IMG/VR virus record: IMGVR_UViG_3300028549_000507
Location: 1-64,000 of that record
Direction: 5' to 3' (one strand)
Origin: a virus
Taxonomy: Duplodnaviria; Caudoviricetes
Length of the DNA: 64,000 nucleotides
Part shown: positions 1,748 to 62,374 of the stretch, piece by piece
Position numbering within the stretch: the first letter of the stretch is position 1
How the letters are laid out: each line of letters opens with the position of its first letter
Notes under the pieces: generated by a model
What the model was told of the DNA's origin: nothing
Databases searched by the model: none
Seen by the model: the letters and a program-made list of their open reading frames with translations, nothing else
Made by a program: the position numbers and the translations under genes

Positions 1748-1759
1748 CAATACGATGTT
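1748..1759 (-). promoter_or_regulatory. Late promoter AACA-N6-TG
   Basis: AACATCGTATTG upstream of the protease gene. Confidence 0.7.
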
Positions 1760-1768
1760 CATCATCTA

Positions 1769-1780
1769 AACATTTAATTG
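1769..1780 (+). promoter_or_regulatory. Late promoter AACA-N6-TG
   Basis: AACATTTAATTG upstream of 1816, divergent from the previous promoter. Confidence 0.7.
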
Positions 1781-1815
1781 GTATAAAAATTATTTTTTAA
1801 TTTAAGGAATGATCT

Positions 1816-3411
1816 ATGAGTCAAAAATCATTTGAATCAGAATTGTTTGAAGTTATGGGATTAGAATCTTCTGTAGATAATATTTCATATGAGTATGATG
1901 AAATATCTTGGGAATCATCTAATATTTATGATGATAATTTTGTTAGATATTCTGAAGAATCTACAAGTGCGAGCATTTTGTTAAAGATTTCTGAAGAGTA
2001 TATTAATAATGCTGTATCGTTTGAATCTAGCGGAGATAATATTGTTGTTAGAATTTTTAAGTTCATTTGGGGAATTATTAAGAAAATTGTAGCAGCTATT
2101 AAAAATTTCTTTTTGTGGATTGTAAATGGGATTAAATCGTTGTTTGGTGGAGGATCTGGTGGAGGGGTGGCTCAAATTACAAGTAGTTCGAATCCGAATA
2201 GAGATATCGTAATTACCGCAGTAATGTCCAAAGTTATTACAGTTCCTGTGATTGATAACTCTAAATTAAATGAATCTATGAAAAAACAAAAAGAATCACA
2301 AATAGAAATGGAAAAAGCTATAAAAGATTTTTCTAACACTTGTGATATTAATGTCATAAAGAAACCAACGATTGATGGTATTGATAAAAGTTCTAAAGAA
2401 CTCGATGAATTGATCGCAAGAAATAATGAAACGGCTCGTCAAATAGAGTTGGATATTGAAAAAAGAAAACTTGATAGAGAGAAACGTGAAACCGAAGAAA
2501 AAGATCGTATAGCCAGAGAAGCAAAAGAATCTTCCGAACGATCTTTAAAAGCCGCTCAAGATGCTGCTAAGAACGCCATAGCACTGATGCATAAGAAAGC
2601 TATGCAAGATAAAGAGGACAAAGATAGAAATGAAAAAGAGAAAAGAGAAAGAGATGAAGCGCTCGCTCAAAGTCAAAAGCGTCTACAAGAACTAAGAGAA
2701 GAACGAGAAGCGAATGATAAGAAGCGTAAACAAGAGGCTAAAGATACTGAGAAGTTCTTATCGGAAATAATTGAAACCTCAAAAGCTCGTAATGAGGAAC
2801 TTTTGAATAAAAGATTTATAGAAGAAAAAAATAAAATAAGAGAACGTGACCGTATCGGAAGAATGAATTCTTATATAAGTGGTAGAATTAGTACTCAAAA
2901 GACTATATCTGACTATTTTAATAACTATTCAACTATGACCGTTGATAGACGTAAACTTCAAAAAAGTATCGATGATATACAGCATCATATTCGTGGATAC
3001 GATGAATCTCTAAAATTCCTTGATAAACTTATTGAGAAAATTATAGACTCCGAGAGAACTACAACAAACCTTATAAATACTGCAGATAGTAAACATCATA
3101 TGTTGAATGATTCATATGTGAATAGAGTTCAATATAATAACTATCTTCAAAAAGTCAGAACACAAATCGCAAATCTTGTTAAAGCTATTAATACTAATGT
3201 TGGCGATGCTACATCTACTGTTAAAGAGTTGATGTGGTGTGCTCAAGACGATACTCTATTATCGAATATAATAATAAGTGCTAGAGATGCTATAGAATAT
3301 GTTGGAAAGCGTAGCGATAATAGATACAATACTGTTGTAGGTGGTTTGGATGATCTAAGACGTCGGGATGAACAGTTTAAGATGATTGAAGATATGAAAA
3401 GAAAGGTATAA
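1816..3411 (+). CDS. Internal head (ejection) protein with protease-cleaved propeptide and long charged coiled coil
   Basis: Acidic N-terminus with many S/G-x-E sites (SFE, GLE, SYE, SWE, SEE, SFE), then an amphipathic helix IFKFIWGIIKKIVAAIKNFF and an E/K/R-rich middle. Confidence 0.6.
   Translation: MSQKSFESELFEVMGLESSVDNISYEYDEISWESSNIYDDNFVRYSEESTSASILLKISEEYINNAVSFESSGDNIVVRIFKFIWGIIKKIVAAIKNFFLWIVNGIKSLFGGGSGGGVAQITSSSNPNRDIVITAVMSKVITVPVIDNSKLNESMKKQKESQIEMEKAIKDFSNTCDINVIKKPTIDGIDKSSKELDELIARNNETARQIELDIEKRKLDREKRETEEKDRIAREAKESSERSLKAAQDAAKNAIALMHKKAMQDKEDKDRNEKEKRERDEALAQSQKRLQELREEREANDKKRKQEAKDTEKFLSEIIETSKARNEELLNKRFIEEKNKIRERDRIGRMNSYISGRISTQKTISDYFNNYSTMTVDRRKLQKSIDDIQHHIRGYDESLKFLDKLIEKIIDSERTTTNLINTADSKHHMLNDSYVNRVQYNNYLQKVRTQIANLVKAINTNVGDATSTVKELMWCAQDDTLLSNIIISARDAIEYVGKRSDNRYNTVVGGLDDLRRRDEQFKMIEDMKRKV
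1826..1865 (+). repeat. 40-nt direct repeat, copy 1
   Basis: AATCATTTGAATCAGAATTGTTTGAAGTTATGGGATTAGA, identical at 3429-3468. Confidence 0.95.
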
Positions 3412-4653: not shown

Positions 4654-4665
4654 AACATCTTAGTA
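4654..4665 (+). promoter_or_regulatory. Late promoter AACA-N6-TA
   Basis: AACATCTTAGTA. Confidence 0.7.
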
Positions 4666-4695: not shown

Positions 4696-6498
4696 ATGGA
4701 TATTGTAATTGAAAATAAGCCCCTATCCCTCATAGCGGCACTTCTTTACGGAAAATTCTACGACGAGTATGATGCTGATGATAATGATGGTATACGTAGA
4801 AGTAATCTGAATAGTTTTATATTTAGATCTCTTAATAGAGATGCATTTACTTCTATTGGTGAAACATTTATCGGACTTAATGATGGTGCTCTTGTAAATT
4901 ATTCTAAAGATCATGCTAATCTTTTCAACAATACTGGTAAAAGTATACTAATGTCTATGATATATGAAGTATATAACGCTAAACATGGCGACGACGTTAA
5001 TACTTATATACCAGAATTTGCAGAGATAAATCGTGGACTTATATTGGGTTTAACTAAAGAGATGTCAGATTTCTCATATAGGAATATGAATCTTACGCTT
5101 AGTAAATTTAGCGCAGATGGATCTAAGAATAAAGTATTCCCATTCCTATCTGTAGCCCCGTATTTTGAAGATGGTATTGGTGGATTAAATCATTCGCAGA
5201 TATTCCCTATAATTAATAGTGCTATCTATTATATTCTTACGGGAACTATGTTTGGTCTTATCGGTGATGAGATTAAAGTTAGAGAAATCTTTGGATATGA
5301 GTCTGATACTGCTGTAGACGTTGATAGTCTATTTAAAGCCCTTCCTCAGGATAAGATTCTGAATATTTCACATCTTGCCATGATGTTTGAAATCATATGT
5401 GATTATACTGAAAAATCTACTGGTGTTAAATTTAATGATAAATTTACAGCAGCTTTTAGAACATTCGGTTCCGCATATATGAAAAAATTCAACGAAGCTA
5501 ACGATGGGTGTGATTATTCTTCATGTATTACTAGTGATGCATATGATATTAATACTCGTGCAGCTATGGTTGTAATGGATTCATTGTGTCCAACATCCCA
5601 AAGATACGTTGGAGATCATACTTATGACTTACGTCCTATGTATTTCCAACATATACTTAGAGATACTACATATTTACCACCAATGTATGCCAGAGTTCAA
5701 GATGAATTCAATGGTGCATGGGCTGATTTGGAGAAGTATACTTCAATCATGGATCTTCATGCATATGAACGGGCTATGAGAACTTGTTTGACATATCTCG
5801 AGTCTATGAATATGACTGATGATTCTGCATTTGTATCTAACTGGTATAAATACATACACTTAGATACTCTTATTAACAATGCATTTAGATGCTGGTCTTC
5901 TTCGAAGTCTCCATTTAAAATCGTTGGAGTAGATGATTTGTATGTTGAAGTTGATTCTATTAATGATTCGACTGTTAAAAAGTGTATGAGTATTAACTCT
6001 ATTCAATATTCTATCGGATTTGAAAGAGCTATTACAATTGCTAAAGCCCTCAATGCTAGATATATTGAAGCCGTTGAGTGGATTTATTGTAAAAAATCTA
6101 GAGCACAATTTAATTCAGATTTCTATAAGAAAATCGATTATGTTGCTGAAGGATTTTTAGCATATGATAGTGTCGAAGACGCTATTAGAGATTACAAGAC
6201 ATTTAAACAGCCTAGATTGACAACTATCGGAGATTATTCAAATTCCGATTTGGCAACTTATGCTAGTAAAAATAATGTAGATTGTGGGAATAAAACTATA
6301 GTGAAGCTTTGTGATTTAGACACTTCCTATGTTGACTCAGATCGATCTGTCGTCCGATATCCTTTCGATATCGTTAGAAATGGAAACTTTAACAATTTAA
6401 TTTTAACCAATTCGAATGATTCGGGTAAAAAATTTGCTACAACAATTAAGAATCTCGAAAATGCAGAGTTCGCCTTTTTGATGAAACAAAAAGATTAG
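4696..6498 (+). CDS. Hypothetical late protein (head module)
   Basis: 600 aa ORF, SD GAGGT, late promoter; no recognisable motif. Confidence 0.6.
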   Translation: MDIVIENKPLSLIAALLYGKFYDEYDADDNDGIRRSNLNSFIFRSLNRDAFTSIGETFIGLNDGALVNYSKDHANLFNNTGKSILMSMIYEVYNAKHGDDVNTYIPEFAEINRGLILGLTKEMSDFSYRNMNLTLSKFSADGSKNKVFPFLSVAPYFEDGIGGLNHSQIFPIINSAIYYILTGTMFGLIGDEIKVREIFGYESDTAVDVDSLFKALPQDKILNISHLAMMFEIICDYTEKSTGVKFNDKFTAAFRTFGSAYMKKFNEANDGCDYSSCITSDAYDINTRAAMVVMDSLCPTSQRYVGDHTYDLRPMYFQHILRDTTYLPPMYARVQDEFNGAWADLEKYTSIMDLHAYERAMRTCLTYLESMNMTDDSAFVSNWYKYIHLDTLINNAFRCWSSSKSPFKIVGVDDLYVEVDSINDSTVKKCMSINSIQYSIGFERAITIAKALNARYIEAVEWIYCKKSRAQFNSDFYKKIDYVAEGFLAYDSVEDAIRDYKTFKQPRLTTIGDYSNSDLATYASKNNVDCGNKTIVKLCDLDTSYVDSDRSVVRYPFDIVRNGNFNNLILTNSNDSGKKFATTIKNLENAEFAFLMKQKD

Positions 6499-10894: not shown

Positions 10895-11212
10895 TTAAAT
10901 TAATACGGTTCGAATTGCATCGAATCCTGTAATCAATGCGCCAGTTACAACTGGTGTAATTCCGGTATTAGTTAGTCCACTTAGAATACTTGGAGCAGCC
11001 ATACCTGTAGTTACTGCATTTTTAAAATCTGTTGGTGCAATAATTACTATACCAAGTATACCAACTACGCCAGAAATAACACACTGTAACAGGAAATAAA
11101 GATTAATATCTCCGTATGCTTTAGTTGTAAGTATCTCCAACAGTCTAAGTAAAGAGATGGCCGTCCCTCCAATAAATCCGCCAATGATGTATTCTTTTGC
11201 AGGAATAGTCAT
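10895..11212 (-). CDS. Small multi-pass membrane protein (holin candidate)
   Basis: 105 aa with 2-3 hydrophobic segments and its own late promoter. Confidence 0.4.
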   Translation of the reverse strand: MTIPAKEYIIGGFIGGTAISLLRLLEILTTKAYGDINLYFLLQCVISGVVGILGIVIIAPTDFKNAVTTGMAAPSILSGLTNTGITPVVTGALITGFDAIRTVLI

Positions 11213-11243: not shown

Positions 11244-11255
11244 CACTAATATGTT
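11244..11255 (-). promoter_or_regulatory. Late promoter AACA-N6-TG
   Basis: AACATATTAGTG. Confidence 0.65.
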
Positions 11256-11860: not shown

Positions 11861-11872
11861 CAATTAATTGTT
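11861..11872 (-). promoter_or_regulatory. Promoter AACA-N6-TG
   Basis: AACAATTAATTG upstream of the HAD gene. Confidence 0.6.
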
Positions 11873-11905: not shown

Positions 11906-11917
11906 AACATTTTATTG
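11906..11917 (+). promoter_or_regulatory. Late promoter AACA-N6-TG
   Basis: AACATTTTATTG. Confidence 0.65.
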
Positions 11918-11951: not shown

Positions 11952-13886
11952 ATGTTCGACAAGAATAGAACTAGTAACAATCTCAAAGACTTCTATGATA
12001 GTGGATTTGAGGCATCATACGATAGTAATATGTCCCAAATGATTCAAACAATCGTTGAAGAATCTAGAGAACTTTTCAAAAGTATGCTAAACGACAGTAA
12101 CACCAACGTCATAAACACTGCGGATTTTGATACTTTGGCAGAATTCCTTGGGAAATCTTTTACAGAACAACAGGAAGTCTACAAACTCAATAAGAGTTCA
12201 GCTATTAGACCTCTCGAATATTCTACAAGAGACATACTACTCCTTAATGAAGCAGTAATCCCGGGTAAAGACGACATCAAACATTTTTACAGATTTGATT
12301 CAGAGATATCCGTTCCAAGAGTTACCGAAAAATACATACTTCAGATTGTTAAAGATAGTCATAAAGGCGAAACTTACAATAGTTTGAACAATAATCATTC
12401 GGAAATACTCCCTACAGATATGATCGTTCCTATTTCATATTGTATTCCTACACTTGGAAATACTGATAAAATTGAATCTCTTTATAAGAGTAATGTATTG
12501 AATGTGTATACTAATATTGATAAAGATGAGTTCTTCTCATATATTATCAAAATTGTAAGTAGAATTCAATTCCAAACAAATCTCATTGTTATTGATAATT
12601 CCAACTATCTTTCTGTATTTAGATCAGTACTTTCGAACTTCGTATCAGTACTTTCTATGCCGAATATTGTAACAATGATTATTAAGGAACTCGCTGTAAC
12701 AGATGCTGTTAAAGCTGCCGTATTTATTAGTACGTTTTCTTCTATTAATAAATATTATGATCATATTTCAACATATGGAACTGTTGATTATGTGATCAAA
12801 ATGTTTAAGAAGGCTCTGTCTACTACTAAGATAACTGAAACTCATGAAAAAATGTGGCAATCACATAAAAATATCATTGATGTTATAACTGGTTGTAGAG
12901 GTATGGATTCTGTTTATTTCCACATGATATCTGATATCATGATGAATAAATCATTCAAAGATGTAAGTAATAAGAAAGAAGAATTCTTGAATTTCGTTAC
13001 TTCGAATTCTATAATTACGATTCTTATAAATGCGTCTATCTCATGTGGTGGACATAATACTGGAATTAGAGGATTGCATAATCTTATCGGAATTCATCCT
13101 GATGATTTGCGAGTTCTCGATGTTCAAATTCCTGTACTAAATGTTAGTGAGAGTATTATTGAAGCCATGTATACTGCTACAGTGAATAATATGGTTGCAA
13201 TATCTTACTCAACATTCTGCATGAAACATGTTCAGATAGCTAAAGGACGCGTTAAAGATACATCATCATACTCTATTACAGAGTATGGGTACGTAAAAAA
13301 TATCTTGGAAAGTTCTCTTGATATTCTTTATCATAATTCTAGAGTTTTGAGAAGAATGTATAAGAACTTGAATAGAAGAAATGAAGATTGTTGTGTTAAA
13401 TCGTATGAAGAAACCGGTAAATCATTCTTAACAGATCCGTATGAGATTAATATTATTTCAAGATTATCTAATCTACCTACGATTAGACGTATTGTTACGA
13501 ATCTTAACACAATTTCTAATGACTTTGAAACCTTACGTGGAGATCTTGATAAGAATCCTGTGTTTGGTGGAGCGAGTGCTATGACTATGAGTATCTCTGG
13601 AGAATCTGAAGATTACTTCTCTACAGAATTCTTTAAAGCAGATGTATCTTCTGAAAATTTCATTAAGCAGTTTACGAAGAATATCACTGTCGGATCCAAT
13701 GTTATTAAATATTGTGATGATCTCAAAGTTGATACAAGACTTGCAGTTGAATCTGGCGATGATGCTGGTATTACTGATTGTATAAAACGCTACGCGGTTC
13801 TCAAGGATTATGCTAATAGAATTACAAATGAAAGTAATTCTAAGATTGCATCTAAGACTATGAGATATGTTGCTAATTTGCTTTAA
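11952..13886 (+). CDS. Hypothetical late/virion protein
   Basis: 644 aa, late promoter, upstream of the terminase; several S/G/A-x-E sites. Confidence 0.55.
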   Translation: MFDKNRTSNNLKDFYDSGFEASYDSNMSQMIQTIVEESRELFKSMLNDSNTNVINTADFDTLAEFLGKSFTEQQEVYKLNKSSAIRPLEYSTRDILLLNEAVIPGKDDIKHFYRFDSEISVPRVTEKYILQIVKDSHKGETYNSLNNNHSEILPTDMIVPISYCIPTLGNTDKIESLYKSNVLNVYTNIDKDEFFSYIIKIVSRIQFQTNLIVIDNSNYLSVFRSVLSNFVSVLSMPNIVTMIIKELAVTDAVKAAVFISTFSSINKYYDHISTYGTVDYVIKMFKKALSTTKITETHEKMWQSHKNIIDVITGCRGMDSVYFHMISDIMMNKSFKDVSNKKEEFLNFVTSNSIITILINASISCGGHNTGIRGLHNLIGIHPDDLRVLDVQIPVLNVSESIIEAMYTATVNNMVAISYSTFCMKHVQIAKGRVKDTSSYSITEYGYVKNILESSLDILYHNSRVLRRMYKNLNRRNEDCCVKSYEETGKSFLTDPYEINIISRLSNLPTIRRIVTNLNTISNDFETLRGDLDKNPVFGGASAMTMSISGESEDYFSTEFFKADVSSENFIKQFTKNITVGSNVIKYCDDLKVDTRLAVESGDDAGITDCIKRYAVLKDYANRITNESNSKIASKTMRYVANLL

Positions 13887-16211: not shown

Positions 16212-16326
16212 AATAAATCCTTTTCTTGGTACCATAGATAAATATAATTAATTAGAGTGTATGGTATAGTCTTTCTATCCATTCTCCACTATTAAATATA
16301 TACTTTATAATTAATTTAAAAAACTT
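16212..16326 (-). promoter_or_regulatory. Early promoter plus family-A hairpin leader plus CTATGGTAC box
   Basis: TATATTTAATAGT at 16288-16300; 48/49 nt identical to 62742-62790. Confidence 0.85.
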
Positions 16327-16355
16327 AAAAAAGAAGAGGGATTACTCCCTCTTCT
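16327..16355 (-). terminator. Terminator, family T1
   Basis: AGAAGAGGGA-GTAA-TCCCTCTTCT plus T-tract; related copies at 29980, 54214 and 62813. Confidence 0.85.
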
Positions 16356-16998: not shown

Positions 16999-17091
16999 AA
17001 CTTCTCCTTATTAAAGTTGCATCTCATTAAGTAATATATAGACAATTTTATACTTTGAGTATTTATTTGTTACTTTGATCATAAAAAAGTA

Positions 17092-17103
17092 AACATCTTA
17101 TTG
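17092..17103 (+). promoter_or_regulatory. Late promoter AACA-N6-TG
   Basis: AACATCTTATTG. Confidence 0.7.
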
Positions 17104-18561: not shown

Positions 18562-18573
18562 AACATTGTAATG
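18562..18573 (+). promoter_or_regulatory. Late promoter AACA-N6-TG
   Basis: AACATTGTAATG upstream of the sheath gene. Confidence 0.7.
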
Positions 18574-21610: not shown

Positions 21611-21622
21611 AACATTTAAATG
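21611..21622 (+). promoter_or_regulatory. Late promoter AACA-N6-TG
   Basis: AACATTTAAATG. Confidence 0.7.
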
Positions 21623-45728: not shown

Positions 45729-45740
45729 CATTAAGATGTT
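45729..45740 (-). promoter_or_regulatory. Promoter AACA-N6-TG
   Basis: AACATCTTAATG. Confidence 0.65.
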
Positions 45741-45767: not shown

Positions 45768-45779
45768 AACATATTAATA
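45768..45779 (+). promoter_or_regulatory. Promoter AACA-N6-TA
   Basis: AACATATTAATA. Confidence 0.65.
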
Positions 45780-47348: not shown

Positions 47349-48467
47349 TTAACAATAAGATAATAATCGGTTTCGTTGTTCGAATCCGTAATCTATCCCT
47401 TCTACAATACTATTATGAACGAATAGTTTATCTTCATCTATCATCTGACTAATTACATCCGTAACTTCGTAAGATGAATCTGCTGAGGAACTAACATCAC
47501 TATCTGCTTGTTGATTGTCATAATCTTTGTATATTATTCTACACTTGGAACCGATTATTGAAGGTGAGTACATAAGTCTCACACTGCCGTAGCGATCCTC
47601 TATAACTTTCCCAATTTGGCGTAGAGCAAACATAACATTTTCAATTTCAATCTCAGCATGACCAGGTGTCATATATTTTTTACCGATAACAGAACTATTT
47701 CTGAAATTCATTCCCATTTGGGTATCATATGCGAATACACCACCATTCACGGTGTAATCGCACCCTGTAATGAAGTTTAGATCTGATATAACTTCATTTG
47801 ATGAACGGAGTTCACTATCATTAGTAAACATTATCTTTTTATCATCATTAATCAGAAGACTATCATTTATCGTATCAAACATCTTAGGGTGTTGTAAATA
47901 TAACGTTGTAACATCATCGATAATGTCCAACCCATACAATCTAGTAAACTCCCGAATTCCGGGATTGACATCATTTTCAACAGCATATTCATGCTCTTGG
48001 GTATAAAATCTCGGATCTACAAGTAATTTTGTTTCAACATATTCACTTATCTCATAACTATTAAATGTACAAGAGTAAAGATTGGCTACATCATTTCTAG
48101 TAAATCCTAAATCATAGTCCGAATCTCTATCGAGTCTTTTAGCTGATAGTATGGTTAGTTCGCTAACCTTAAATCTATCAATTAATGATCCTCCGATATG
48201 GGGGAGTTGGCATGAATAAACATACACAGCCATGAACGAAAGTGTTCCATTATCTCTATTTGATACGGATTCGAATATCACTTTATCAGATCGGGTTGTG
48301 GATATGTTTACTTGTATAACTTTACACACATCACCAATTCTTTCATCATGAAATATATGGATAAATCTTCTACGATCAATAAGTCCCGCTTCTTTAGCAT
48401 TTTCACCGTGCTTACTTAACAATGAATCGCCTAACAAATCGTAATTATTTCCCGTTGGAATATACAT
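47349..48467 (-). CDS. Hypothetical protein (possible paralog of 48496)
   Basis: 372 aa, starts MYIPTG, AACA-type promoter. Confidence 0.6.
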   Translation of the reverse strand: MYIPTGNNYDLLGDSLLSKHGENAKEAGLIDRRRFIHIFHDERIGDVCKVIQVNISTTRSDKVIFESVSNRDNGTLSFMAVYVYSCQLPHIGGSLIDRFKVSELTILSAKRLDRDSDYDLGFTRNDVANLYSCTFNSYEISEYVETKLLVDPRFYTQEHEYAVENDVNPGIREFTRLYGLDIIDDVTTLYLQHPKMFDTINDSLLINDDKKIMFTNDSELRSSNEVISDLNFITGCDYTVNGGVFAYDTQMGMNFRNSSVIGKKYMTPGHAEIEIENVMFALRQIGKVIEDRYGSVRLMYSPSIIGSKCRIIYKDYDNQQADSDVSSSADSSYEVTDVISQMIDEDKLFVHNSIVEGIDYGFEQRNRLLSYC

Positions 48468-48478: not shown

Positions 48479-48490
48479 CACTTAAATGTT
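48479..48490 (-). promoter_or_regulatory. Promoter AACA-N6-TG
   Basis: AACATTTAAGTG. Confidence 0.65.
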
Positions 48491-49618: not shown

Positions 49619-51241
49619 CTAGTTTATAATCTTTAAATAAAACTCTAAGATCTCATTAATAAGCTCTTCATCAGAGTGTTTTATGATATTACCGTTACGT
49701 GGATCTCCGAAATTATTATATACAAACTTATCGTTTGCAAGATGAATTACATCGTCTCGAATAAAGTCTTTCTTTTCAAAGAAACCTCTAATAAAACGAT
49801 ATTTTCCATCAACAATCTCAGTATATCTAGGATCTTCATAAAACTTTCTATCAGAGTTCTTTCCGCCCCATCGCTGTGTAAACGAATGTCCGACACAATT
49901 GGATGCGACATAATCTGCAAGAATATTAAACCCTTGTTTTCTCAAATACTTAATAGTAAGTATGAGTAATCTGACATAGTTATGTCTATTATTATCATAC
50001 ATATTATCAATCCCACCATAACTGTGTGAGAAGATGTTGAATATAGTTTTAGATTGCATATTATGAAGATATAGATTATTCATATAGAATAGATATTCTT
50101 CATACGAATCAATGAATACCCCATATCGAGCAGATATCTTACCAATCGTATCATCAGCAGTATATCGTCTAACGATTTTTAGCAATTCATCTGGACGAGC
50201 TATCTTATTCTCATGAATCTCTATCTCAGTCACAATGTTATCATCGCTACCGGTATTCTTATAATCGTCCCCAAACCCGTTCAAATGGTTATACCCATTA
50301 TCAGTTTGAGGCGTCCAAGTTGCCGATGTATTTTTGATAACTCCTAGAAGATATGATGCAGCTTTATCGACTGGTTCAATTACCGCAATAATCTTTGCAA
50401 GAACCTTAGAAAAGTTATTCTCAATCTCAGTATCAGTTGTAATACCTTTGATTGCCATATTGTCATACATCTTCTTGTGAACTTTTACAGAGTTCTTAAC
50501 GATCTTAGTCGTATATCTGTGTAGTTTATCAAGGATATCATTATCATATTTAAGAGTCAAAGACATTCTTTTAAACAACGCAATAGCCAGATCGTGGAAG
50601 AATTCTTTAGAATCAACTTCTCGGATCATGATATTACAATAATGAGTACAGATAGGAACGATAAGATTTGCGGCATATTTAACATGACACATACCTTTAA
50701 TATCCATATCGGTAAATGTCATATCCATGGAATGTTTATGTTTGGTTGAATCGATTAATTCATCCATACTTCCCATATATACTGAATCTACGTAATTGAA
50801 AATTATCTTAATAATGTTATCTGTTACAACATTCATAAGCTCATTTATAAATACAGGATAGGGGATCTTCGTAAGTTCTCCACCATCATCAATATCCATT
50901 TTCATAGATATTATATTAAGGATAAACTCTTCAGTGTCTCTTAATCCTTCATTATATTTGCGTTTAATCTTGTCGCCAGTATCAATATGAACAAATTGTT
51001 CTGTAAATGAATGGTTTAGAATTCGATTATTATTATCGACTATCAGAGCATTATATCTTTTGAATATACGTTTTGCCGATAGCGATACTCTGAAAGTATC
51101 ATATGGCTTAGCGAAATCGAAGAGTTTACTTACATCAATTGTAATATCTCCCGGACTATCTGTAGATAGTTTGAAGAAGTGCTTACCTTTGAAAGGCTTT
51201 TGCACAAACTCATACTTCTCTTTCTCAATATCTTCGCTCAT
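49619..51241 (-). CDS. Putative non-virion RNAP promoter-specificity subunit (AR9 gp226/phiKZ gp68-like)
   Basis: About 540 aa helical protein; ANLIVPICTHY recalls the IP-x-x-x-x-Y motif of this family; early-type upstream TATATTTACTA; start moved to MSEDIEK. Confidence 0.45.
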   Translation of the reverse strand: MSEDIEKEKYEFVQKPFKGKHFFKLSTDSPGDITIDVSKLFDFAKPYDTFRVSLSAKRIFKRYNALIVDNNNRILNHSFTEQFVHIDTGDKIKRKYNEGLRDTEEFILNIISMKMDIDDGGELTKIPYPVFINELMNVVTDNIIKIIFNYVDSVYMGSMDELIDSTKHKHSMDMTFTDMDIKGMCHVKYAANLIVPICTHYCNIMIREVDSKEFFHDLAIALFKRMSLTLKYDNDILDKLHRYTTKIVKNSVKVHKKMYDNMAIKGITTDTEIENNFSKVLAKIIAVIEPVDKAASYLLGVIKNTSATWTPQTDNGYNHLNGFGDDYKNTGSDDNIVTEIEIHENKIARPDELLKIVRRYTADDTIGKISARYGVFIDSYEEYLFYMNNLYLHNMQSKTIFNIFSHSYGGIDNMYDNNRHNYVRLLILTIKYLRKQGFNILADYVASNCVGHSFTQRWGGKNSDRKFYEDPRYTEIVDGKYRFIRGFFEKKDFIRDDVIHLANDKFVYNNFGDPRNGNIIKHSDEELINEILEFYLKIIN

Positions 51242-51304
51242 ACGTTCCCCAAAGTTAAAGTTATTCAAGTAGTAAATATATACTCATATACTCACTTTAA
51301 GATA

Positions 51305-51334: not shown

Positions 51335-53722
51335 TTACATTTCACCTTTTACGAGAAACATTTCTTTCTTAGCAGTGCTATTTGTGAAAAGGTTCTCAAT
51401 CCACGTATCAGTATAGAATTTATCAGTACTTTTCAATTGGATGATATAACGAGTTTTCGTATCCATAGACGTTACACGAAGTTCCTCTTCCGAGTTCGCT
51501 CCGAGACCTTTAGATCGCGTAACCTCCATACCAGAATTATTTCCAAATAGAGTATTATGAATAAGTTTACCTTGTTCATAATAGATACCACTATAGATAG
51601 TTCCAGTATTACGTCCTACCAATCGGATTCTACATAGTTGAATTTTATTTTTAATGAAATCTACAATAGGATCTATTATATTTTCTTTAAAAGTTCTATC
51701 AATCTGTATATAGAAGTGCTCATATTCCTTATCAATATTAAGCTTTCTAACTCCACCTTCTTCAATATCGAATTTGGTACAATCAAATCCATAAACTTTA
51801 AGTGATTTAGTATTACCTTTCATGATATTCTTGAAATCCATAGCAATTGCTTCCAATATGATAGGATTCAATGTTAATCTATGAGCAAACTCATCAAGCA
51901 ATTTAGAATAGTCTACAAGATTCTGAATGTAGTATTTAAATACATAATCCGGAATATCTGTATTCTCTGGGGTAATACCTTTGAATACTTTCATACACTT
52001 ATCATTTAGCAAACGATTCAGTTGATCATGATTATTGATATATATCGAATTACCTTTAGCATTCATAGTGTATAAAGGCGGTTTAGCAATGAATACATTT
52101 CCATTCTCAATCAGCTCTGGGTAATGTATATGAAAGAATGCTATAAGAAGTGAACTAATATGATACCCATCAACATCGGCGTCTGTAATGATAATGATAC
52201 GCTTATATCTCAATTTAGAGATATCTTTAGTATCATCTTTACCAATTCCGAGAATCTTGACAAGAGTCATAAGTTCCTCTGATAGATCAGATTTCTTTAC
52301 AACATTTTTCACTTTACCACGAAGAGCGAATACAGCTTGATAATCTCTATTACGACCATCTTTAACAGATGATGCAGCGGAATCTCCTTCACATAAGAAT
52401 ATCTCCGTACGCTCTGGATCATTCTTATTACAGTCGGAGAATTTCTTTACATCAATAGTCTTGAATAGATCAGTTTTACTTGATCCAGATTTGATGATCG
52501 CATCTTTAAGCTTACTTGTTTCATATCTCAATTTTGCAAGTTTAGCACAATGTTCACCGATCTTATCGATAGTTGTTGGATCAGAAGATATCCATTTACT
52601 AATCTCATTCTTAAGAACTGGTACAGTTGTAGGTCTATATTCTTTAGAGTTGAAATAACTCTTCTGCTGACCTGTATATTCCGCATGTTGTTGGTCTGCA
52701 ACAATGATCGCAAACATACTATCTGCAATCTCGGAACCACTAATCTTAATCTTATTTGCCATAGATTTAGGTATGTAATTACCTTTATTAAGATGAGCAG
52801 TCAATGTTCCGAGTGCTTCTGTTAACGATTTAACGTGTTCACCACCATCTTTAGTATAGATACCATTTACATATGAAATGCTACCCGCACCACGTCCGGT
52901 GAATCCTAGTACGATATTATAACCTACAGTATGTTTATCATTAAACCATTTGAAATGTACTGGTTTACCGATTGTCTTAATACTACGTTTACGACTTTCT
53001 TTTTCATAATAGTCTACAACGCCATTAGGATGATAATAGTGTTCAACACGACCATTATCCCATTTGAAGTTAATCTTTACACCGGGAGTTACCATAGATT
53101 GTACTTCTACAAAATTTCTATACTCAGATGCTCTAGATGTAATATCTACAAGACGCATAACCTCTACGTCAGGAGTCCATTCGATAATTGTACCGGTGAG
53201 TTTCTTGTCAACTTTAACAATTTCAACATCACCAATCTGCACACCCATATCGAATTTGACCTTATGAGATTCACCATCTCGTGTAGAAATTGCTACAAGA
53301 TCACGACTTACGGCAGTAACCATAGTGATACCAATCCCATTTACGCCGCCAGATACAGGATATCCAGACTTCTCTGCCCCAGCGATATCTCCCATTTTAC
53401 CGGAAGTATTCATCTTAGTGAGAATTCGTACAAGTTTACCTTGTGGGATACCTCGACCTCTATCTTCAATACGGAATCGGGGACCTCGACTATCGATAGT
53501 ATTATTGATATATACATCAATTTCATTACCGAAACCGGCTATAAATTCGTCAATTGAATTCGCAAATACTTCTTGAAGTAGGTGAAATACTCCATCCAAC
53601 TCAATTTTACCATTGAGCATAGGGCGTTTTCTCAATGCTTCAAGTTCCGTAAGTTCAACGATGTGGTCATCATTATAACCAGTAGACATAGTAGATCCTT
53701 CATGTTTATTATTAGACTTCAT
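51335..53722 (-). CDS. gyrB: Type IIA topoisomerase/gyrase subunit B
   Basis: GHKL motifs EVFANSIDE, EDRGRGIP and GGVNGIG; Toprim motifs CEGDSA, LRGK and TDADVDG. Confidence 0.95.
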   Translation of the reverse strand: MKSNNKHEGSTMSTGYNDDHIVELTELEALRKRPMLNGKIELDGVFHLLQEVFANSIDEFIAGFGNEIDVYINNTIDSRGPRFRIEDRGRGIPQGKLVRILTKMNTSGKMGDIAGAEKSGYPVSGGVNGIGITMVTAVSRDLVAISTRDGESHKVKFDMGVQIGDVEIVKVDKKLTGTIIEWTPDVEVMRLVDITSRASEYRNFVEVQSMVTPGVKINFKWDNGRVEHYYHPNGVVDYYEKESRKRSIKTIGKPVHFKWFNDKHTVGYNIVLGFTGRGAGSISYVNGIYTKDGGEHVKSLTEALGTLTAHLNKGNYIPKSMANKIKISGSEIADSMFAIIVADQQHAEYTGQQKSYFNSKEYRPTTVPVLKNEISKWISSDPTTIDKIGEHCAKLAKLRYETSKLKDAIIKSGSSKTDLFKTIDVKKFSDCNKNDPERTEIFLCEGDSAASSVKDGRNRDYQAVFALRGKVKNVVKKSDLSEELMTLVKILGIGKDDTKDISKLRYKRIIIITDADVDGYHISSLLIAFFHIHYPELIENGNVFIAKPPLYTMNAKGNSIYINNHDQLNRLLNDKCMKVFKGITPENTDIPDYVFKYYIQNLVDYSKLLDEFAHRLTLNPIILEAIAMDFKNIMKGNTKSLKVYGFDCTKFDIEEGGVRKLNIDKEYEHFYIQIDRTFKENIIDPIVDFIKNKIQLCRIRLVGRNTGTIYSGIYYEQGKLIHNTLFGNNSGMEVTRSKGLGANSEEELRVTSMDTKTRYIIQLKSTDKFYTDTWIENLFTNSTAKKEMFLVKGEM

Positions 53723-53813
53723 TTTACTCTCCGAATGTTACATTTATTTGTTGAGTGAATTATAATTTTTAATCCTATGGCGTTATCTAATATATATTTA
53801 AACGATATCATTG

Positions 53814-54106: not shown

Positions 54107-54213
54107 AATAAATCCAATCCGGGCATATATTGTTTTGCCCTATAATTAATTAATAGAAGGTAAGTTAACATTCGTTACTTCCTTCTTTGTTCACTATTAA
54201 ATATACATATTAC
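54107..54213 (-). promoter_or_regulatory. Early promoter plus family-C two-hairpin leader
   Basis: TATATTTAATAGT at 54193-54205. Confidence 0.85.
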
Positions 54214-54245
54214 AAAAAAAAAGAGAGAGGGATTACTCCCTCCCT
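54214..54245 (-). terminator. Terminator, family T1
   Basis: AGGGAGGGA-GTAA-TCCCTCTCT plus T-tract. Confidence 0.85.
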
Positions 54246-54246
54246 A

Positions 54247-54588: not shown

Positions 54589-54660
54589 AATATTCTCCGT
54601 TATTAAAGTATTATGGATGCATCTCGATTGAGATGCATCCTATTCATTATTAAATATATA
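54589..54660 (-). promoter_or_regulatory. Early promoter variant plus palindromic leader
   Basis: TATATTTAATAAT at 54646-54658, then GGATGCATCTC-AATC-GAGATGCATCC (11-bp stem). Confidence 0.8.
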
Positions 54661-55116: not shown

Positions 55117-56028
55117 CTATTTAAAATTTGAAGCAATTACTTTTCTAATAGACTCGAAATAAGCTCTACGCCCATCAAGTCCATGACTACCACCATTGAT
55201 ACGTTTTGTAAGAAGAGTTACATTATTAGTATCAGCAATAGTATTACAATTATTCTTTGTCCAGAACCATACCGCAGAGTCAACGATGCCACCACCTCTA
55301 GTACAGAAATCAACTGCTTCAGGAACTGTAATCTTTCTATCAGCAGCATATGCTGTATAGTTAGCTCTACCCGTCAACTGTATAAGTCCTCTGCCGCGAA
55401 ATCTAAACCCATCACCACTCGATGGATTTCCATTAGCCATTCTATTGGCATAAACCTTATTAGCAATAGCCTCAGGTTTTCTGGCGTATTTAGCAGCCTC
55501 GGCATCAGTAAGGAAGTATTTCTTAAAAATCTTAAGAAGACCTTCCTTAGAATAATTTAGATTCTCAGTAACAACACGGAAACCACCAGATTCTTGAGCA
55601 CATTGTGCTAAGAAATGAGATGCTCTAAGTTCCGTGTTAATATTGCCGATATCCATAAAGTTATTCAAGAACGGTACGAGATCCTTACGACCAGTAGGGA
55701 ATAATTTTACAAACTGGGCTTCTGTTATAATTGGTTTTTTAGCTACAGGAGATGCTGCGACTATCTCATTAATTTCAACATCCTCAACCTTTGATGCTTC
55801 TTTAATTGGAGAAGATACAGCCTCGACTATAGGAGTTTCTACAACTAATGCAACAAGCTGACCATCAATCTCATTTTCAGAGAAATGAGCAGTATCTAGA
55901 ACTGCCGGAGTTGTTGTAGGAGGTTCTACAAGAGTAGGTTCTGTATGCATTGGGGTTGCCGATATTGCAACCGGTTCAGATCTACGAGATCTTAGGTATT
56001 CGATAATAGTTCTGAGTAAAGATTTCAT
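55117..56028 (-). CDS. Glycoside hydrolase family 19 endolysin with N-terminal low-complexity extension
   Basis: FLAQCAQESGGF, ENLNYS, FRGRGLIQLTGRANY, SAVWFW and INGG..GL..R. Confidence 0.9.
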   Translation of the reverse strand: MKSLLRTIIEYLRSRRSEPVAISATPMHTEPTLVEPPTTTPAVLDTAHFSENEIDGQLVALVVETPIVEAVSSPIKEASKVEDVEINEIVAASPVAKKPIITEAQFVKLFPTGRKDLVPFLNNFMDIGNINTELRASHFLAQCAQESGGFRVVTENLNYSKEGLLKIFKKYFLTDAEAAKYARKPEAIANKVYANRMANGNPSSGDGFRFRGRGLIQLTGRANYTAYAADRKITVPEAVDFCTRGGGIVDSAVWFWTKNNCNTIADTNNVTLLTKRINGGSHGLDGRRAYFESIRKVIASNFK

Positions 56029-56064: not shown

Positions 56065-56076
56065 CATTATAATGTT
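56065..56076 (-). promoter_or_regulatory. Late promoter AACA-N6-TG
   Basis: AACATTATAATG upstream of the endolysin. Confidence 0.7.
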
Positions 56077-58900: not shown

Positions 58901-58982
58901 AATAACTCCTCTTATAATATTATTACACATTTGACATTCGTCCTATGTGTTCACTATTAAATATATAATTTAATATGAATTT
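58901..58982 (-). promoter_or_regulatory. Early promoter plus hairpin leader
   Basis: TATATTTAATAGTGAACA at 58948-58965 (shared with family C), then ACACAT..GAC-GAAT-GTC..ATGTGT. Confidence 0.8.
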
Positions 58983-59018: not shown

Positions 59019-60068
59019 CTAAAAATCATCCCAACCCGGAAGAGCAGAGCTCATATTATATGAAGTAACTGTAGTCTCGAAGAAGTTGGCTTTAGATGAA
59101 CCTTCTCCTTCCAAGTCTGCAATTCTTTCAAGATGCATATATGGATTCTTAGAGAACTTAGGATCAGTAAATAATTTACTTATACCAATAAATTCCAAAC
59201 GTTCATTAGTAATAAATTTTGTATACTGCTCAATAGAATCATCTGATATTCCGAGTACATTCTTTATAATATGTGTAGACCATTTAATCTCTTGTTCTAC
59301 CGCCATTTTAAACATTTCATTAATCTCTATATCATGAATAGATTCCCATACTTCCGGAGATTCTTTCTTGATTTCATTGATAATATGTTTAAATAATACA
59401 ACATGGAGGAGTTCATCTCTCTGGATAAGTTTGATGATATTAGCTGTACCATTCATCAAATTTCTAGAAGTTAATGTATAGAAGAAATTAAATCCATTGT
59501 AAAAATATATAGATTCAAGAAGATAGTTAGCAATAATAGTCTTCATAAAGTTCTTATTACTAGGATCATCCTCAAAATCTTGATATATAGAAGCTATGTA
59601 TTTATTTCTTTCTAGAAGAACCTCATCCTCACGCCACTTCTCATAAAGAGTATCTCTTGCAGGTTTATCTATAATACTCTCGATAATATATGCATAAGAC
59701 TTCGAATGAATAGATTCAAAGAAAGTTTGCACCGTTAGAGTTAGAGATACTTCTGGAGCTGTAATATACTTGGCTATATTAGGTAAGTTTGTAACCTGAA
59801 TACTATCTAAGAATACTAAGAAAGACAGTATCCCATCATAAGCAACCTTTTCATCAGGAGTTAATTTACGGTAATCTCGTACATCATCTGTAAGAGATAC
59901 CTTCTCCGGAATCCAGAAGTTATTCATCATATTAGTATAAAGGTTGTTTGCCCACTGATATTTAACATTGTTAAGGTTAAATAGATTAGTAGTATTACCA
60001 TCCAAAATACTTCTTTCAGAAAGTTCTTCAGTTCCGGTTTCATTAAATATAAGTTTAGTCTTCATCAT
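59019..60068 (-). CDS. nrdB: Ribonucleotide reductase class I beta subunit
   Basis: NFWIPE, FLDSIQ, ESIHSKSY (radical Tyr), LESIYFYNGF, RDELLH and the FFE C-terminal tail. Confidence 0.95.
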   Translation of the reverse strand: MMKTKLIFNETGTEELSERSILDGNTTNLFNLNNVKYQWANNLYTNMMNNFWIPEKVSLTDDVRDYRKLTPDEKVAYDGILSFLVFLDSIQVTNLPNIAKYITAPEVSLTLTVQTFFESIHSKSYAYIIESIIDKPARDTLYEKWREDEVLLERNKYIASIYQDFEDDPSNKNFMKTIIANYLLESIYFYNGFNFFYTLTSRNLMNGTANIIKLIQRDELLHVVLFKHIINEIKKESPEVWESIHDIEINEMFKMAVEQEIKWSTHIIKNVLGISDDSIEQYTKFITNERLEFIGISKLFTDPKFSKNPYMHLERIADLEGEGSSKANFFETTVTSYNMSSALPGWDDF

Positions 60069-60073
60069 ATCTC

Positions 60074-62332
60074 CTAATTAGCACAGCTTACACATTCTTC
60101 TTTAGACTTTTCAGAACCATCTTTTTGAATAGTTCTTGTATAATAAATAGCTTTACACTCGGATTTCCAAGCGAATATAATATTTTCAAAGATATCCTTA
60201 GCGGTGATATCTGAATTGAGATTGTACACAAGCTCCATACTAATTCCAGTATCGATCCATTTCTGAATAATAGATGTAATACGGATCACATCTCTTTGAT
60301 CTGTAAACTTATTCTCATTATAGAACCATCGTTTAGATCTAATATAAGGTGGGAATACAGGTACATTTCCATTAGAATTCTTTTCGATATGGAACTTAGA
60401 GTATGTAGGAAGAACACTTGCTGTACATCCGATGAGATTAGATGTAGATGTATTTGGAGCAATTGCTGTACATTGTGAGTTTCTTATTCCAAACACTTTA
60501 AGTTTATTGAATAATACTTTCCATTTTTCATACATACTTGAGTTAGAGTATTCATCAATAGTTTTATTGAGGATCTTACCTTTATAGAATTCTGAATTCT
60601 CATATGCTTCAAATGTTCCACGTTCTTTAGCCAAATCTATAGATGAATCATATGTATAATATGCAAATTTTTCAAATAGATTATCTACAAATTCTCCAGA
60701 TTCAGCATATCGTTTATCATTTATAGCTAACAAATCATGCAAACCCATATAACCGATACCGATTACTCTATATAGTCTATTGTGATTATCTGCATCCATT
60801 ACTGGTGGAGTTGTAATTTCTATAGCATTATCAAGTATTCTAACTGCCGTTCTATGGATTTGTTTAATTTCATCTTCATCCGTAATATCTATTTCTGCAA
60901 GATTTATAGAAACTAGGTTACATATATGGGTTTCCCCTATACGTCTAATCTCGGTCGATACTGCAGAATCATGCTCAGATTCCATTATTGAAGATGGTCT
61001 AAAGTTAGAGAATGATTCTACACAGAGATTAGCAGAACCAATATAACCACATTCTTTATTTGGATTATATTTGTTAGCGGTATCTTTGAAGAATATATAT
61101 GGCATACCGGTCTCAATTTGAGTTTTCATGATATGCTTCATAATATCTCTTGCTTGATGAACTCTTTTGAATTTGATCAATTCACTATGTTCGATAGTAA
61201 GATACCAATCTTCAAATGCTTTACCATGAAGTTCGAAGATATTTATACCAAATACCTTTTTAATTTCATATGGATCGAATGTTGTCCAAGGACCACTTTC
61301 TTCAACACGTCGCATGAATATGTCCGATATAACTACTTGTGGGAATACATCAAATGACTTTCTTCTAAGATCACCATTTTCAGTCTGCATTTCCAAGAAT
61401 TCAATAATATCATTGTGCCAAATATCCAATGCGACAGTAGCTGCACCAGCTCTATGACCATTCTGATCTACTGCAATCATTGTATCATTTACAATCTTAA
61501 TCCAAGGAAGAACTCCATTGGATCCTCCGAGTTGTCCTCTAAGATAAGATCCATTTGATCTAATTCTAGATACATTAACACCTACACCACCACCTGTAGC
61601 AGATATATTAGAAATATCTTTTACTGTTTGGAATATGCTGTCTAGGTTATCATCCATTGCTACGATGAAGCAAGATGATAGATTTCCATTAGGACGTCTA
61701 AGGTTTGTTAGGATAGGCGTTGCAAGAGATATCAATTTCCTAGTGATCATACTATAGAATTGGATTGTTACACTGTTGCGAACTTCCGGTTTCTCATTCA
61801 TTGCGAGGTACATTGATACTACCATAAACATTGTTTGAGGGAGTTCATATCCTATAAGATAACGGTTTTTAAGAATGTTTAAACCGGCGTATTCAAACAA
61901 TGCATCATTATCAAAATCCATAGAATTGAAGATTTCTCTAATAGATTCTTCATTATATCTTTCCAATATAACTTTATCATATTGATTCTCTTCAACCATT
62001 TTATTAACAAATGAAACAAACCCATCTACAGTATATTGGTCGAATTTAAGGTTTCGTTTGGCTTCTTTTGTAACTTCATGAAGGAGCATTCTAGCTGCAA
62101 AACTTGAGTAATCTAGGTTATTCAAATCACATTTAGTTACAGCATAGTGAATGATTGATTTCTGAATCTCACTGGTAGTGACAACTTCTGATTTAGAGAA
62201 TGCATCAATGTGGGCTTCTACTTCAAGGTGATCTATAGTGAGTCCTACGGAACAATCTCGTACAACTTTTCTAATTTTTTCAATATCAATTTTACTTTCA
62301 TGACCATGACGGTCAACTACGGTTACGCTCAT
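60074..62332 (-). CDS. nrdA: Ribonucleotide reductase class Ia alpha subunit with ATP cone
   Basis: N-terminal ATP cone, ATPIL, LSSCF, NLCVE, APNTS, KAIYY and C-terminal CVSC. Confidence 0.95.
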   Translation of the reverse strand: MSVTVVDRHGHESKIDIEKIRKVVRDCSVGLTIDHLEVEAHIDAFSKSEVVTTSEIQKSIIHYAVTKCDLNNLDYSSFAARMLLHEVTKEAKRNLKFDQYTVDGFVSFVNKMVEENQYDKVILERYNEESIREIFNSMDFDNDALFEYAGLNILKNRYLIGYELPQTMFMVVSMYLAMNEKPEVRNSVTIQFYSMITRKLISLATPILTNLRRPNGNLSSCFIVAMDDNLDSIFQTVKDISNISATGGGVGVNVSRIRSNGSYLRGQLGGSNGVLPWIKIVNDTMIAVDQNGHRAGAATVALDIWHNDIIEFLEMQTENGDLRRKSFDVFPQVVISDIFMRRVEESGPWTTFDPYEIKKVFGINIFELHGKAFEDWYLTIEHSELIKFKRVHQARDIMKHIMKTQIETGMPYIFFKDTANKYNPNKECGYIGSANLCVESFSNFRPSSIMESEHDSAVSTEIRRIGETHICNLVSINLAEIDITDEDEIKQIHRTAVRILDNAIEITTPPVMDADNHNRLYRVIGIGYMGLHDLLAINDKRYAESGEFVDNLFEKFAYYTYDSSIDLAKERGTFEAYENSEFYKGKILNKTIDEYSNSSMYEKWKVLFNKLKVFGIRNSQCTAIAPNTSTSNLIGCTASVLPTYSKFHIEKNSNGNVPVFPPYIRSKRWFYNENKFTDQRDVIRITSIIQKWIDTGISMELVYNLNSDITAKDIFENIIFAWKSECKAIYYTRTIQKDGSEKSKEECVSCAN

Positions 62333-62362
62333 TGGTTTCTCCTAAAGATAAATACTCGCTAC

Positions 62363-62374
62363 TAATAGACTGTT
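62363..62374 (-). promoter_or_regulatory. Promoter AACA-N6-TA
   Basis: AACAGTCTATTA upstream of nrdA. Confidence 0.65.

Follow-up and report, generated by a model that had tools for sequence, protein, structure and literature searches.

The window analysed here comprises the first 64 kb (64,000 nucleotides) of the IMG/VR virus record IMGVR_UViG_3300028549_000507, a contig of 200,251 bp with 33% G+C that is classed as 'linear' and estimated by CheckV to be ~72% complete; as the window starts the contig, window and contig coordinates are the same. Intergenic DNA accounts for ~6% of the contig (11.8 kb), 94% being coding, and the element of interest is a short motif beginning with AACA that stands upstream of many operons and resembles the late promoter read by the non-virion RNA polymerase (nvRNAP) of Bacillus phage AR9. 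Comparison of all AR9 open reading frames (ORFs) with all ORFs of the whole contig by BLASTP revealed homologs of the terminase, sheath, portal, DNA polymerase, gyrase-like, UvsX and GroEL genes and, judged by these sequence matches, the contig is a distant AR9/phiKZ-type jumbo phage. No nucleotide match to it was obtained among 50,697 phage records (megablast, 8 kb query), a 990-aa ORF of the window had no tblastn match in the same records, and the ten largest ORFs of the window contained almost no Pfam or PHROG families besides the terminase and the sheath.

The original prediction listed 17 copies of AACA-N6-T(A/G) in the window as preceding late operons on both strands. All 17 12-mers were found in place, and each faces a gene start with a Shine-Dalgarno (SD) sequence 11-75 nt downstream. 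The loose pattern itself, however, was not enriched in the window (88 matches versus 108±10 in shuffles). Alignment of the 17 sites yielded a tighter motif, AACA-N3-(T/A)A-N-T(G/A), with the consensus AACATnTTAATG, designated here as L-type. It matched the contig 69 times, and 43 of these matches were intergenic, compared with 4.9±2.2 (maximum 13) in 300 composition-preserving shuffles of the intergenic DNA; the corresponding densities were 3.65 per kb of intergenic and 0.14 per kb of coding DNA, a 26-fold difference. An SD sequence and an ORF followed within 160 nt on the motif's own strand at 40 of the 43 intergenic sites, with a median distance of 32.5 nt from the terminal purine to the start codon (interquartile range 28-39, range 11-113 nt). 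While all 17 listed sites proved real, two further ones, at 36114 and 53741, and probably a third at 17060, all on the minus strand, had been missed (Table 1).

When the 3' half of the pattern was left unimposed, A at +9, T at +11 and G at +12 were still enriched at intergenic AACAs relative to coding ones. The strongest conserved positions were AACA and the terminal TG, and T(-4) and A(-3) were conserved as well, giving TAWTG, whereas the region upstream of the motif where a -35 box would lie carried no information content. The architecture thus agrees with the predicted likeness to the AR9 late promoter, with AACA at -11 to -8 if the final purine is taken as +1; with the position of the start inferred from the AR9 layout in this way, the start nucleotide would be G in 73% of the sites. 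Enrichment analysis of 6-mers upstream of genes was dominated by SD words and did not recover the motif.

L-type sites precede the virion, packaging and lysis operons, but also the GyrB-like, GyrA-like, ribonucleotide reductase (RNR), DNA polymerase, ThyX and nvRNAP beta-N and beta'-C genes, and the label 'late' is therefore too narrow; 'nvRNAP-type' describes these sites better. Many of them are directly preceded by a terminator hairpin with a T-run. One such hairpin, AAGAGGGATTnCTCCCTCTT, flanked by A/T-runs, recurs in the window (for example at 16320-16345, 29985-30010 and 54220-54246) and beyond it (79830-79860, 152700-152726 and 166190-166215), and its stem words AAGAGGGA and AGAGGGAT occur 13 times in the genome, 12 times in intergenic DNA and usually just before the next promoter.

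The motif was also followed in a 181-kb relative (69% complete), which has 74 ORFs in common with the contig at a median amino-acid identity of 41%. The relative carries the same L-type motif; intergenic DNA makes up 6.8% of it and contains 35 of the 60 matches. Of 69 pairs of orthologs, 14 have the motif upstream of both members, nine only in this genome, three only in the relative and 43 in neither (odds ratio 22, Fisher p=2e-6). Thus, the motif has kept its place before orthologous genes even though their products now share only ~41% identity. The relative also has the companion early motif described below, in the form TATATATTTAATnnTG.

The phage encodes all four split core subunits of an nvRNAP, homologs of AR9 gp089, gp105, gp154 and gp270. 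In tblastn searches among described phages, the best match to the beta-C subunit was AR9/PBS1 (31.7% identity, 261 bits), followed by the Staphylococcus phages SA1 and S6 (26%; 219 and 213 bits) and phiR1-37 (27.9%, 177 bits), with phiKZ-like phages (~25%, 120-132 bits) coming only after these phages, all of which are reported to contain deoxyuridine (dU). The fifth subunit of the AR9 enzyme, the sigma-like promoter-specificity protein gp226, was not evident from pairwise searches: BLAST and phmmer with AR9 gp226 gave only noise against the genome (best E 0.46, the true homolog at E 0.81), and phmmer searches of PDB sequences with two candidate ORFs found nothing. A family hidden Markov model (HMM) was then built from seven orthologs (AR9, BpSp, Machias, S6, SA1, phiR1-37 g245 and LPJP1) and matched one ORF of the genome, 49619-51268, with E 3.3e-15, the next value being 0.3. 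Likewise, hhalign aligned the family of the window protein with the gp226 family of the dU clade over 435 columns (98.4% probability, E 1e-14). The AlphaFold2 model of the product (mean predicted local distance difference test score 73) had as its top Foldseek matches in the PDB 7s01_A (E 6.6e-13) and 7um0_A (E 1.4e-10), both entries of the AR9 nvRNAP holoenzyme whose chain A was taken as gp226 by its length (463/459 aa), and as the third match phiKZ 8que_B (E 5.5e-7), ahead of an unrelated match at E 0.43. By HMM, hhalign and modelled fold, this product is a gp226 homolog and sigma-like nvRNAP subunit, and the gp226-like candidate of the original prediction is borne out. The product of 43299-44693, which has the length of gp226 (464 aa), was rejected, as it matches AR9 g218.

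Metagenomic data contained 21 homologs of the gp226-like protein (40-56% identity), and three related IMG/VR contigs were found. ThyX, ThyA, dUTPase and beta-N were not found in the related contigs, but these are 19-69% complete and nothing follows from this for the clade. In Listeria phage LPJP1, the gp226 ortholog (MZ422438.1, 216484-218106) is annotated as two coding sequences (382 and 131 aa), split or frameshifted. It keeps the helix containing Val206, which suggests by sequence that LPJP1 groups with the dU phages.

A second motif, (A/G)TATATATTTAATAGTG, precedes clusters of small minus-strand genes and is designated E-type (early-like). With up to two mismatches it occurs ten times in the window and about nine more times beyond it. 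It is nearly the same as the early consensus of AR9, AAATATATATTAT-N5-G in the annotation of the AR9 record, which is that of the virion RNAP, and it also precedes genes in phiR1-37, BpSp and SA1. A more divergent copy lies directly upstream of the gp226-like gene, and AR9 g226 likewise has an early promoter. Early-like and AACA motifs are both present upstream of some genes, such as those of beta-N, GyrB and dUTPase. The virion RNAP subunit encoded in the window, a homolog of AR9 g264, probably belongs, by its sequence, to the polymerase acting on the early motif; other virion RNAP pieces are also encoded on the contig.

Table 1. Promoter motifs and genes discussed in the text (contig coordinates, identical to those of the window up to 64,000).
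Feature	Position	Strand	Context or evidence
L-type AACATCGTATTG	1748-1759	-	before 859-1728, prohead protease-like (AR9 g114 homolog)
L-type AACATTTAATTG	1769-1780	+	before 1816-3411 (531 aa), matching the AR9 major head protein gene in length and neighbourhood, no sequence match
L-type AACATCTTAGTA	4654-4665	+	before 4696-6498; motif also at relative's ortholog
L-type AACATATTAGTG	11244-11255	-	before 10895-11212
L-type AACAATTAATTG	11861-11872	-	SD and ATG ~32 nt downstream
L-type AACATTTTATTG	11906-11917	+	before 11952-13886 and terminase gene
Probable L-type AACAAATAAATA	17060-17071	-	before 16363-16998; motif at similar distance at relative's ortholog; newly listed
L-type AACATCTTATTG	17092-17103	+	before 17132-17770 and 17782-18525 (AR9 g125 virion protein homolog)
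L-type AACATTGTAATG	18562-18573	+	before tail sheath gene; kept in relative
L-type AACATTTAAATG	21611-21622	+	directly after terminator hairpin; before 21654-22325 and virion-protein operon
L-type AACATTATATTG	36114-36125	-	before 34804-36066 (AR9 g213 virion protein homolog); newly listed
L-type AACACTATAATG	36149-36160	+	before 36202-37389 (AR9 g214 homolog); kept in relative
L-type AACATATTAATG	38625-38636	+	before 38707-39831; kept in relative
L-type AACATCTTATTG	41235-41246	+	after terminator, before 41278-43053; identical 12-mer at relative's ortholog
L-type AACATCTTAATG	45729-45740	-	before 44693-45718 and 43299-44693 (AR9 g218 homolog); kept in relative
L-type AACATATTAATA	45768-45779	+	before 45805-46716 (AR9 g227 homolog)
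L-type AACATTTAAGTG	48479-48490	-	before 47349-48467; kept in relative
L-type AACAAATAAATG	53741-53752	-	before GyrB-like topoisomerase gene 51335-53722; early-like motif (53781) just upstream; newly listed
L-type AACATTATAATG	56065-56076	-	before endolysin gene
L-type AACAGTCTATTA	62363-62374	-	before RNR alpha and beta genes
E-type TATATATTTAATAGTG	16287-16302	-	exact
E-type	27453-27468	-	1 mismatch
E-type	28003-28018	-	2 mismatches
E-type	29366-29381	-	1 mismatch
E-type	29942-29957	-	2 mismatches
E-type	43250-43265	-	exact
E-type	54192-54207	-	1 mismatch
E-type	54645-54660	-	1 mismatch
E-type	58952-58967	-	exact
E-type	62777-62792	-	1 mismatch
E-type, beyond window	67224, 69320, 70900, 75002, 99336(+), 124252, 186313, 190077, 194427		
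Early-like TATATATTTACTACTT	51267-51282	-	3 mismatches; directly upstream of gp226-like gene
gp226/gp68-family sigma-like nvRNAP promoter-specificity subunit gene (predicted)	49619-51268	-	540-549 aa; HMM, hhalign, fold
nvRNAP beta-C	124287-126335		32% identity to AR9 gp089 (BLASTP)
nvRNAP beta-N	152727-154244		BLASTP vs AR9
nvRNAP beta'-C	83971-86082		BLASTP vs AR9
nvRNAP beta'-N	136565-138352		BLASTP vs AR9
Virion RNAP subunit gene	25848-27071	+	AR9 g264 homolog (BLASTP)
Terminase gene	13946-16024	+	downstream of 11906 promoter
Tail sheath gene	18623-20485	+	downstream of 18562 promoter
Endolysin gene	55117-56028	-	PDB sequence matches
RNR alpha, class I	60074-62332	-	
RNR beta, class I	59019-60068	-	
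dUTPase, canonical	66543-67013		NF001862 equivalog, 183 bits vs 103 cut-off
NrdG-like radical-SAM/Fer4_12 protein	66037-66546		directly downstream of dUTPase
ThyX	69423-70805		460 aa; Pfam Thy1 50.6 bits vs 24.8 cut-off; PHROG 'thymidylate synthase' E 7e-18
Tubulin/FtsZ-family protein, PhuZ-like candidate	118222-119451	-	409 aa; 28-30 bits, just below Pfam cut-off
Thymidylate-kinase-like P-loop protein	178642-179379	+	25-26 bits, cut-off 27

The presence of an AR9-type motif had led the original prediction to its heading of a possible uracil-DNA phage, and the check that it proposed was a search of the full genome for a deaminase, a UDG inhibitor and the absence of thymidylate synthase. Carried out on the whole contig, this check had the opposite outcome and does not support that heading. 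A ThyX was found, although ThyA was not, and a canonical dUTPase is encoded; on the latter a dCTP-deaminase model scored 42 bits against a cut-off of 93, which was the only signal of this kind in the genome. An AACA site lies 38 nt before the ThyX gene, and the dUTPase gene has both early and AACA motifs upstream. The long ThyX carries an ESSTRY-type motif in its first half and RHRSGHRFS in its second, which suggests a pseudo-dimeric, duplicated protein like PHROG 36506 and makes it a candidate thymidylate synthase. Neither a dCMP deaminase (PF00383) nor any other dCTP/dCMP deaminase was found in the ~72%-complete contig, and the AR9 Ugi had no BLAST or phmmer match in the same incomplete sequence, such inhibitors being small and diverse; a counterpart of the AR9 deoxyribonucleotidase was also not found in it. 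The dU phages show the reverse: in the same family searches, the complete genomes of AR9, phiR1-37 and S6 gave no match to ThyA, ThyX or dUTPase, and all three have the dCMP deaminase, while phiKZ gave ThyA and a weak dUTPase-like match. The tubulin family, represented here by a PhuZ-like candidate, scored 37 bits in the 181-kb relative and 32 bits in phiKZ and was not found in AR9, phiR1-37 or S6. A thymidylate-kinase-like gene is present as well, in an operon headed by an AACA-type site at 178130. According to Iyer et al. (PMC7824862), dU genomes require the absence of thymidylate synthase/Thy1 and of dUTPase; with both a ThyX and a dUTPase, this genome departs from that pattern on both counts and, as far as its gene content tells, most likely consists of ordinary thymine DNA.

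The residues through which AR9 recognizes uracil point in the same direction. In the AR9 holoenzyme, the obligatory -10 uracil is stacked between gp226 Ile207 and betaN Arg363 and hydrogen-bonded to betaN Lys375, with its C5 facing Val206; a V206G variant accepts T, the valine is 'absolutely conserved' in dU-phage orthologs, and Tyr210 of gp226 stacks on the -9 G (PMC9209446). The helix YSDxVIWxY/F that includes Val206 was invariant in all seven dU-clade proteins of our alignment, whereas the window protein has KVHKKMYDN in its place, and the Val206 column of its 13-member family reads K/K/P/Q/Q/Q/-/K/L/Q/R/K/P. Ile207 is kept as I in that family (M in the window protein), Trp208 is replaced by an invariant Y, and Tyr210 by R, K or N. 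In betaN, Lys375 is kept and Arg363 falls within a deleted loop of 8-9 residues. Provisionally, the fold of gp226 and some of its anchors thus appear to be retained and the uracil-discriminating parts not. As equivalents of Ile207, Trp208 and Lys375 persist, we lean towards a reading of AACA on the template strand.

Taken together, these data make it likely that the AACA sites are promoters of the phage's own AR9/phiKZ-type nvRNAP, which would recognize them in a thymine-compatible manner on thymine DNA. Of the two possibilities offered by the original prediction, a dU-containing genome or a thymine-tolerant variant of the AR9 recognition, the latter fits the evidence and is the better reading. 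The enzyme would consist of the split beta and beta' subunits and the sigma-like fifth subunit, and its promoter would be bipartite, with AACA at about -11 to -8, TAWTG at about -4 to +1 and initiation at the final G. Upon infection, transcription from the TATATATTTAATAGTG promoters by the injected virion RNAP would supply the products of the early cassettes, the gp226-like protein and some or all of the other nvRNAP subunits; once its five subunits are assembled, the nvRNAP would start at the terminal G of AACA-N3-TAWTG sites. These promoters would drive the virion, lysis and packaging operons and, in tandem with the early motif, the replication, nucleotide-metabolism and nvRNAP genes, as in the 'continuously expressed' arrangement of AR9. 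Contacts with the AACA/TTGT element at -11 to -8 would fall to the sigma-like subunit, and the start-site element may be bound by the beta-like subunit, as the analogous phiKZ GP123 suggests (PMC12809450). With thymine DNA being most likely, AACA (TTGT on the template) would have to be read without the uracil-specific pocket of AR9.

Several points weigh against this interpretation. The enzyme is assigned to the motif by homology with AR9, and by beta-C sequence the nearest described relatives are precisely the phages reported to contain dU. With ~18% identity, an error of one turn is conceivable in the alignment near Val206 and Arg363. In a pocket of identical geometry, a residue with a C-beta at position 206 would collide with the methyl group of thymine, and the pocket must therefore differ in ways that are not visible from the sequence. 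The ThyX is divergent, scoring 31.6 bits where the NCBIfam equivalog model requires 87.9, and the absences of Ugi and deaminase from a contig that is ~72% complete are weak evidence. Furthermore, ThyX, ThyA, dUTPase and RNR were not found in the available 69% of the 181-kb relative, and the thymine argument covers this genome and not yet the clade.

Some of these points are equally those on which a phage packaging deoxyuridine DNA like AR9, phiR1-37 and S6 could be argued, its nvRNAP reading the template 3'-UUGU-5' through uracil pockets: the motif has the AR9 layout, beta-C and the gp226 fold place the dU phages nearest, the early motif is common to AR9, BpSp, SA1 and phiR1-37, and the relative lacks ThyX and dUTPase in its sequenced part. 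We nevertheless consider this improbable, since promoter motifs of the phage lie upstream of both a canonical dUTPase gene and a ThyX gene, when all three proven dU phages lack these two genes and possess a dCMP deaminase that is not found here. Val206 and the 2.1bis helix motif, invariant in dU-clade gp226, are not conserved, betaN Arg363 is deleted, and there is a tubulin-like gene as in the thymine-DNA phage phiKZ, all of which points the same way, as do, weakly in an incomplete contig, the missing match to AR9 Ugi and, by inference only, the poor recovery of dU DNA in standard amplified libraries (bioRxiv 10.1101/2020.12.14.422802). Thymine might instead be replaced by another C5-substituted pyrimidine, 5-hydroxymethyl-dU (hmdU) or a hypermodified T, with the ThyX-like protein acting as a dUMP-modifying enzyme fed by the dUTPase, as in SPO1-type phages. 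Its atypical form, a chain of 460 aa in which the RHR and ESxRY-type motifs lie in different halves and which scores below the NCBIfam equivalog cut-off, would suit such a role, and hmdU phages reportedly combine a dUTPase with a dUMP-modifying enzyme. We know of no ThyX-family hydroxymethylase, however, and the PHROG matched by this protein is annotated as thymidylate synthase with a profile of 491 positions, from which the long form appears as a recurrent type of phage ThyX. Neither an hmdU kinase nor a glycosyltransferase nor any other gene for hypermodification appeared in a Pfam sweep of 124 ORFs, and the phage does have a thymidylate-kinase-like gene; a modified base of this kind is thus very improbable.

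Two further explanations dispense with the nvRNAP. The motif could be a flanked, -10-like TAWAAT box for the host RNAP, or this enzyme could recognize it with the help of a phage sigma factor or activator, and TATAAT or TTAAT does occur inside several sites, for instance AACATTATAATG. Conservation, however, peaks at AACA and the terminal TG and not at the positions of a sigma70 -10 box, and there is no -35 signal, for which reasons a sigma70 promoter was rejected; moreover, full sets of both virion and non-virion RNAP subunits are encoded by the phage, no sigma factor appeared in the Pfam sweep, and phages of this group transcribe independently of the host RNAP (PMC7598289), leaving host recognition highly unlikely. 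An RNA-level role, for example as a processing site or an element of the 5' untranslated region, would likewise agree with sites lying in 5' leaders, and the binding site of a DNA-binding regulator is the other possibility of this kind. Both we find scarcely credible, as many sites directly follow intrinsic terminators, where a new transcript must start, the start codon follows them at anything from 11 to 113 nt, and their layout is that of an experimentally mapped promoter class of the nearest relatives (PMC5312081).

Some other features of the contig were recorded. The endolysin, described as a GH19 lysin in the original prediction, resembles SPN1S-type/GH19-like endolysins by PDB sequence matches, but did not match the Pfam GH19 model. 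The products of 21654-22325 and 98573-99268 are paralogs that both match the AR9 paralog pair g242/g261, and an AACA-type promoter motif lies upstream of each. A large ORF running from 62844 past the end of the window, after the NrdG-like gene, could be an anaerobic RNR (NrdD). Two unusually long ORF-free stretches, 80930-81637 (708 nt) and 81767-82145 (379 nt), could represent broken genes, the remnant of an intron or homing element, or RNA genes, and minus-strand intergenic stretches at 187293-187446 and 188134-188363 look like tRNA genes by eye only. One ORF contained a strong WDGH domain (PF25311, E 1e-32) in the Pfam sweep, and others DUF7208 and DUF1653.

The AR9 late promoter, AACA-6N-T-A/G(+1), is read by the gp226-containing nvRNAP holoenzyme (PMC5312081, PMC5449584, PMC9209446), and in AR9 tandem early and late promoters keep the replication genes and four of the five genes for this enzyme 'continuously expressed' (PMC5312081). 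The motif described here shares with it the AACA placed 6 nt before T-purine, its sense orientation just upstream of virion and lysis operons, and the tandem arrangement with an AT-rich, ATATATTAT-type early promoter in front of genes for replication and the nvRNAP; moreover, all five nvRNAP subunits have homologs here, with AR9 as the best match. It differs in the predicted thymine DNA, as opposed to the uracil DNA of AR9, and in gp226 Val206 and Tyr210 and betaN Arg363, which have no conserved counterparts here. G would be the start in 73% of sites, whereas A prevails (76%) among the intergenic matches to the pattern in AR9, T(-4) and A(-3) of TAWTG are additionally conserved, and the same pattern is enriched 11.9-fold in intergenic DNA here against 4.0-fold in AR9, the motif of this phage being far more information-rich. 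phiKZ offers a likeness of another kind, namely a thymine-DNA context, an element overlapping the start that ends in TG with G as the start, a homologous sigma-like subunit (the third-best fold match) and a tubulin-like gene. Its late promoter, T(-3)A(-2)T(-1)G(+1), nevertheless has no conserved -10-like element, whereas here T(-4)A(-3)W(-2)T(-1)G(+1) follows a strong AACA, and the TA of TAWTG is shifted by one base relative to phiKZ TATG.

By beta-C and gp226, the closest described relatives are the dU jumbo phages (PBS1/AR9, vB_BpuM-BpSp, phiR1-37 and Staphylococcus S6/MarsHill-like phages, and LPJP1 by gp226 homology only), which share the early promoter consensus with this genome; AR9, phiR1-37 and S6 differ from it in the gene content set out above. 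According to reviews, late promoters of these phages are not predictable from sequence, and none were found for phiR1-37 and the Staphylococcus jumbo phages (PMC7598289, PMC5312081, bioRxiv 10.1101/2020.12.14.422802). Our literature search found no paper on the present lineage or on an AACA-type promoter in a thymine-DNA phage. As a tentative and rather doubtful extension, the lineage may naturally link the AR9 group, with its uracil DNA, to the nucleus-forming phiKZ group, with its thymine DNA; on this view, the AACA -10-like promoter would be older than uracil DNA and the uracil specificity conferred by Val206 and Arg363 in AR9 a later acquisition, the nvRNAP reading template TTGT (-11 to -8) on thymine DNA and TAWTG being the counterpart of phiKZ TATG.

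AACA-N6-TR alone should not count as a marker of uracil DNA. In this phage, both promoter classes are readable from the genome and provide an operon map for an uncultivated phage. No multisubunit RNAP other than the AR9 nvRNAP is known to recognize a -10-like element in the template strand, and the AR9 enzyme needs uracil for this; the engineered V206G exchange relaxed one of the two uracil requirements. If the interpretation favoured here is true, a natural enzyme of the same family that uses AACA on thymine DNA would provide a comparator for structural work and a link between the AR9 and phiKZ promoter types, and would show how uracil specificity was built or lost.

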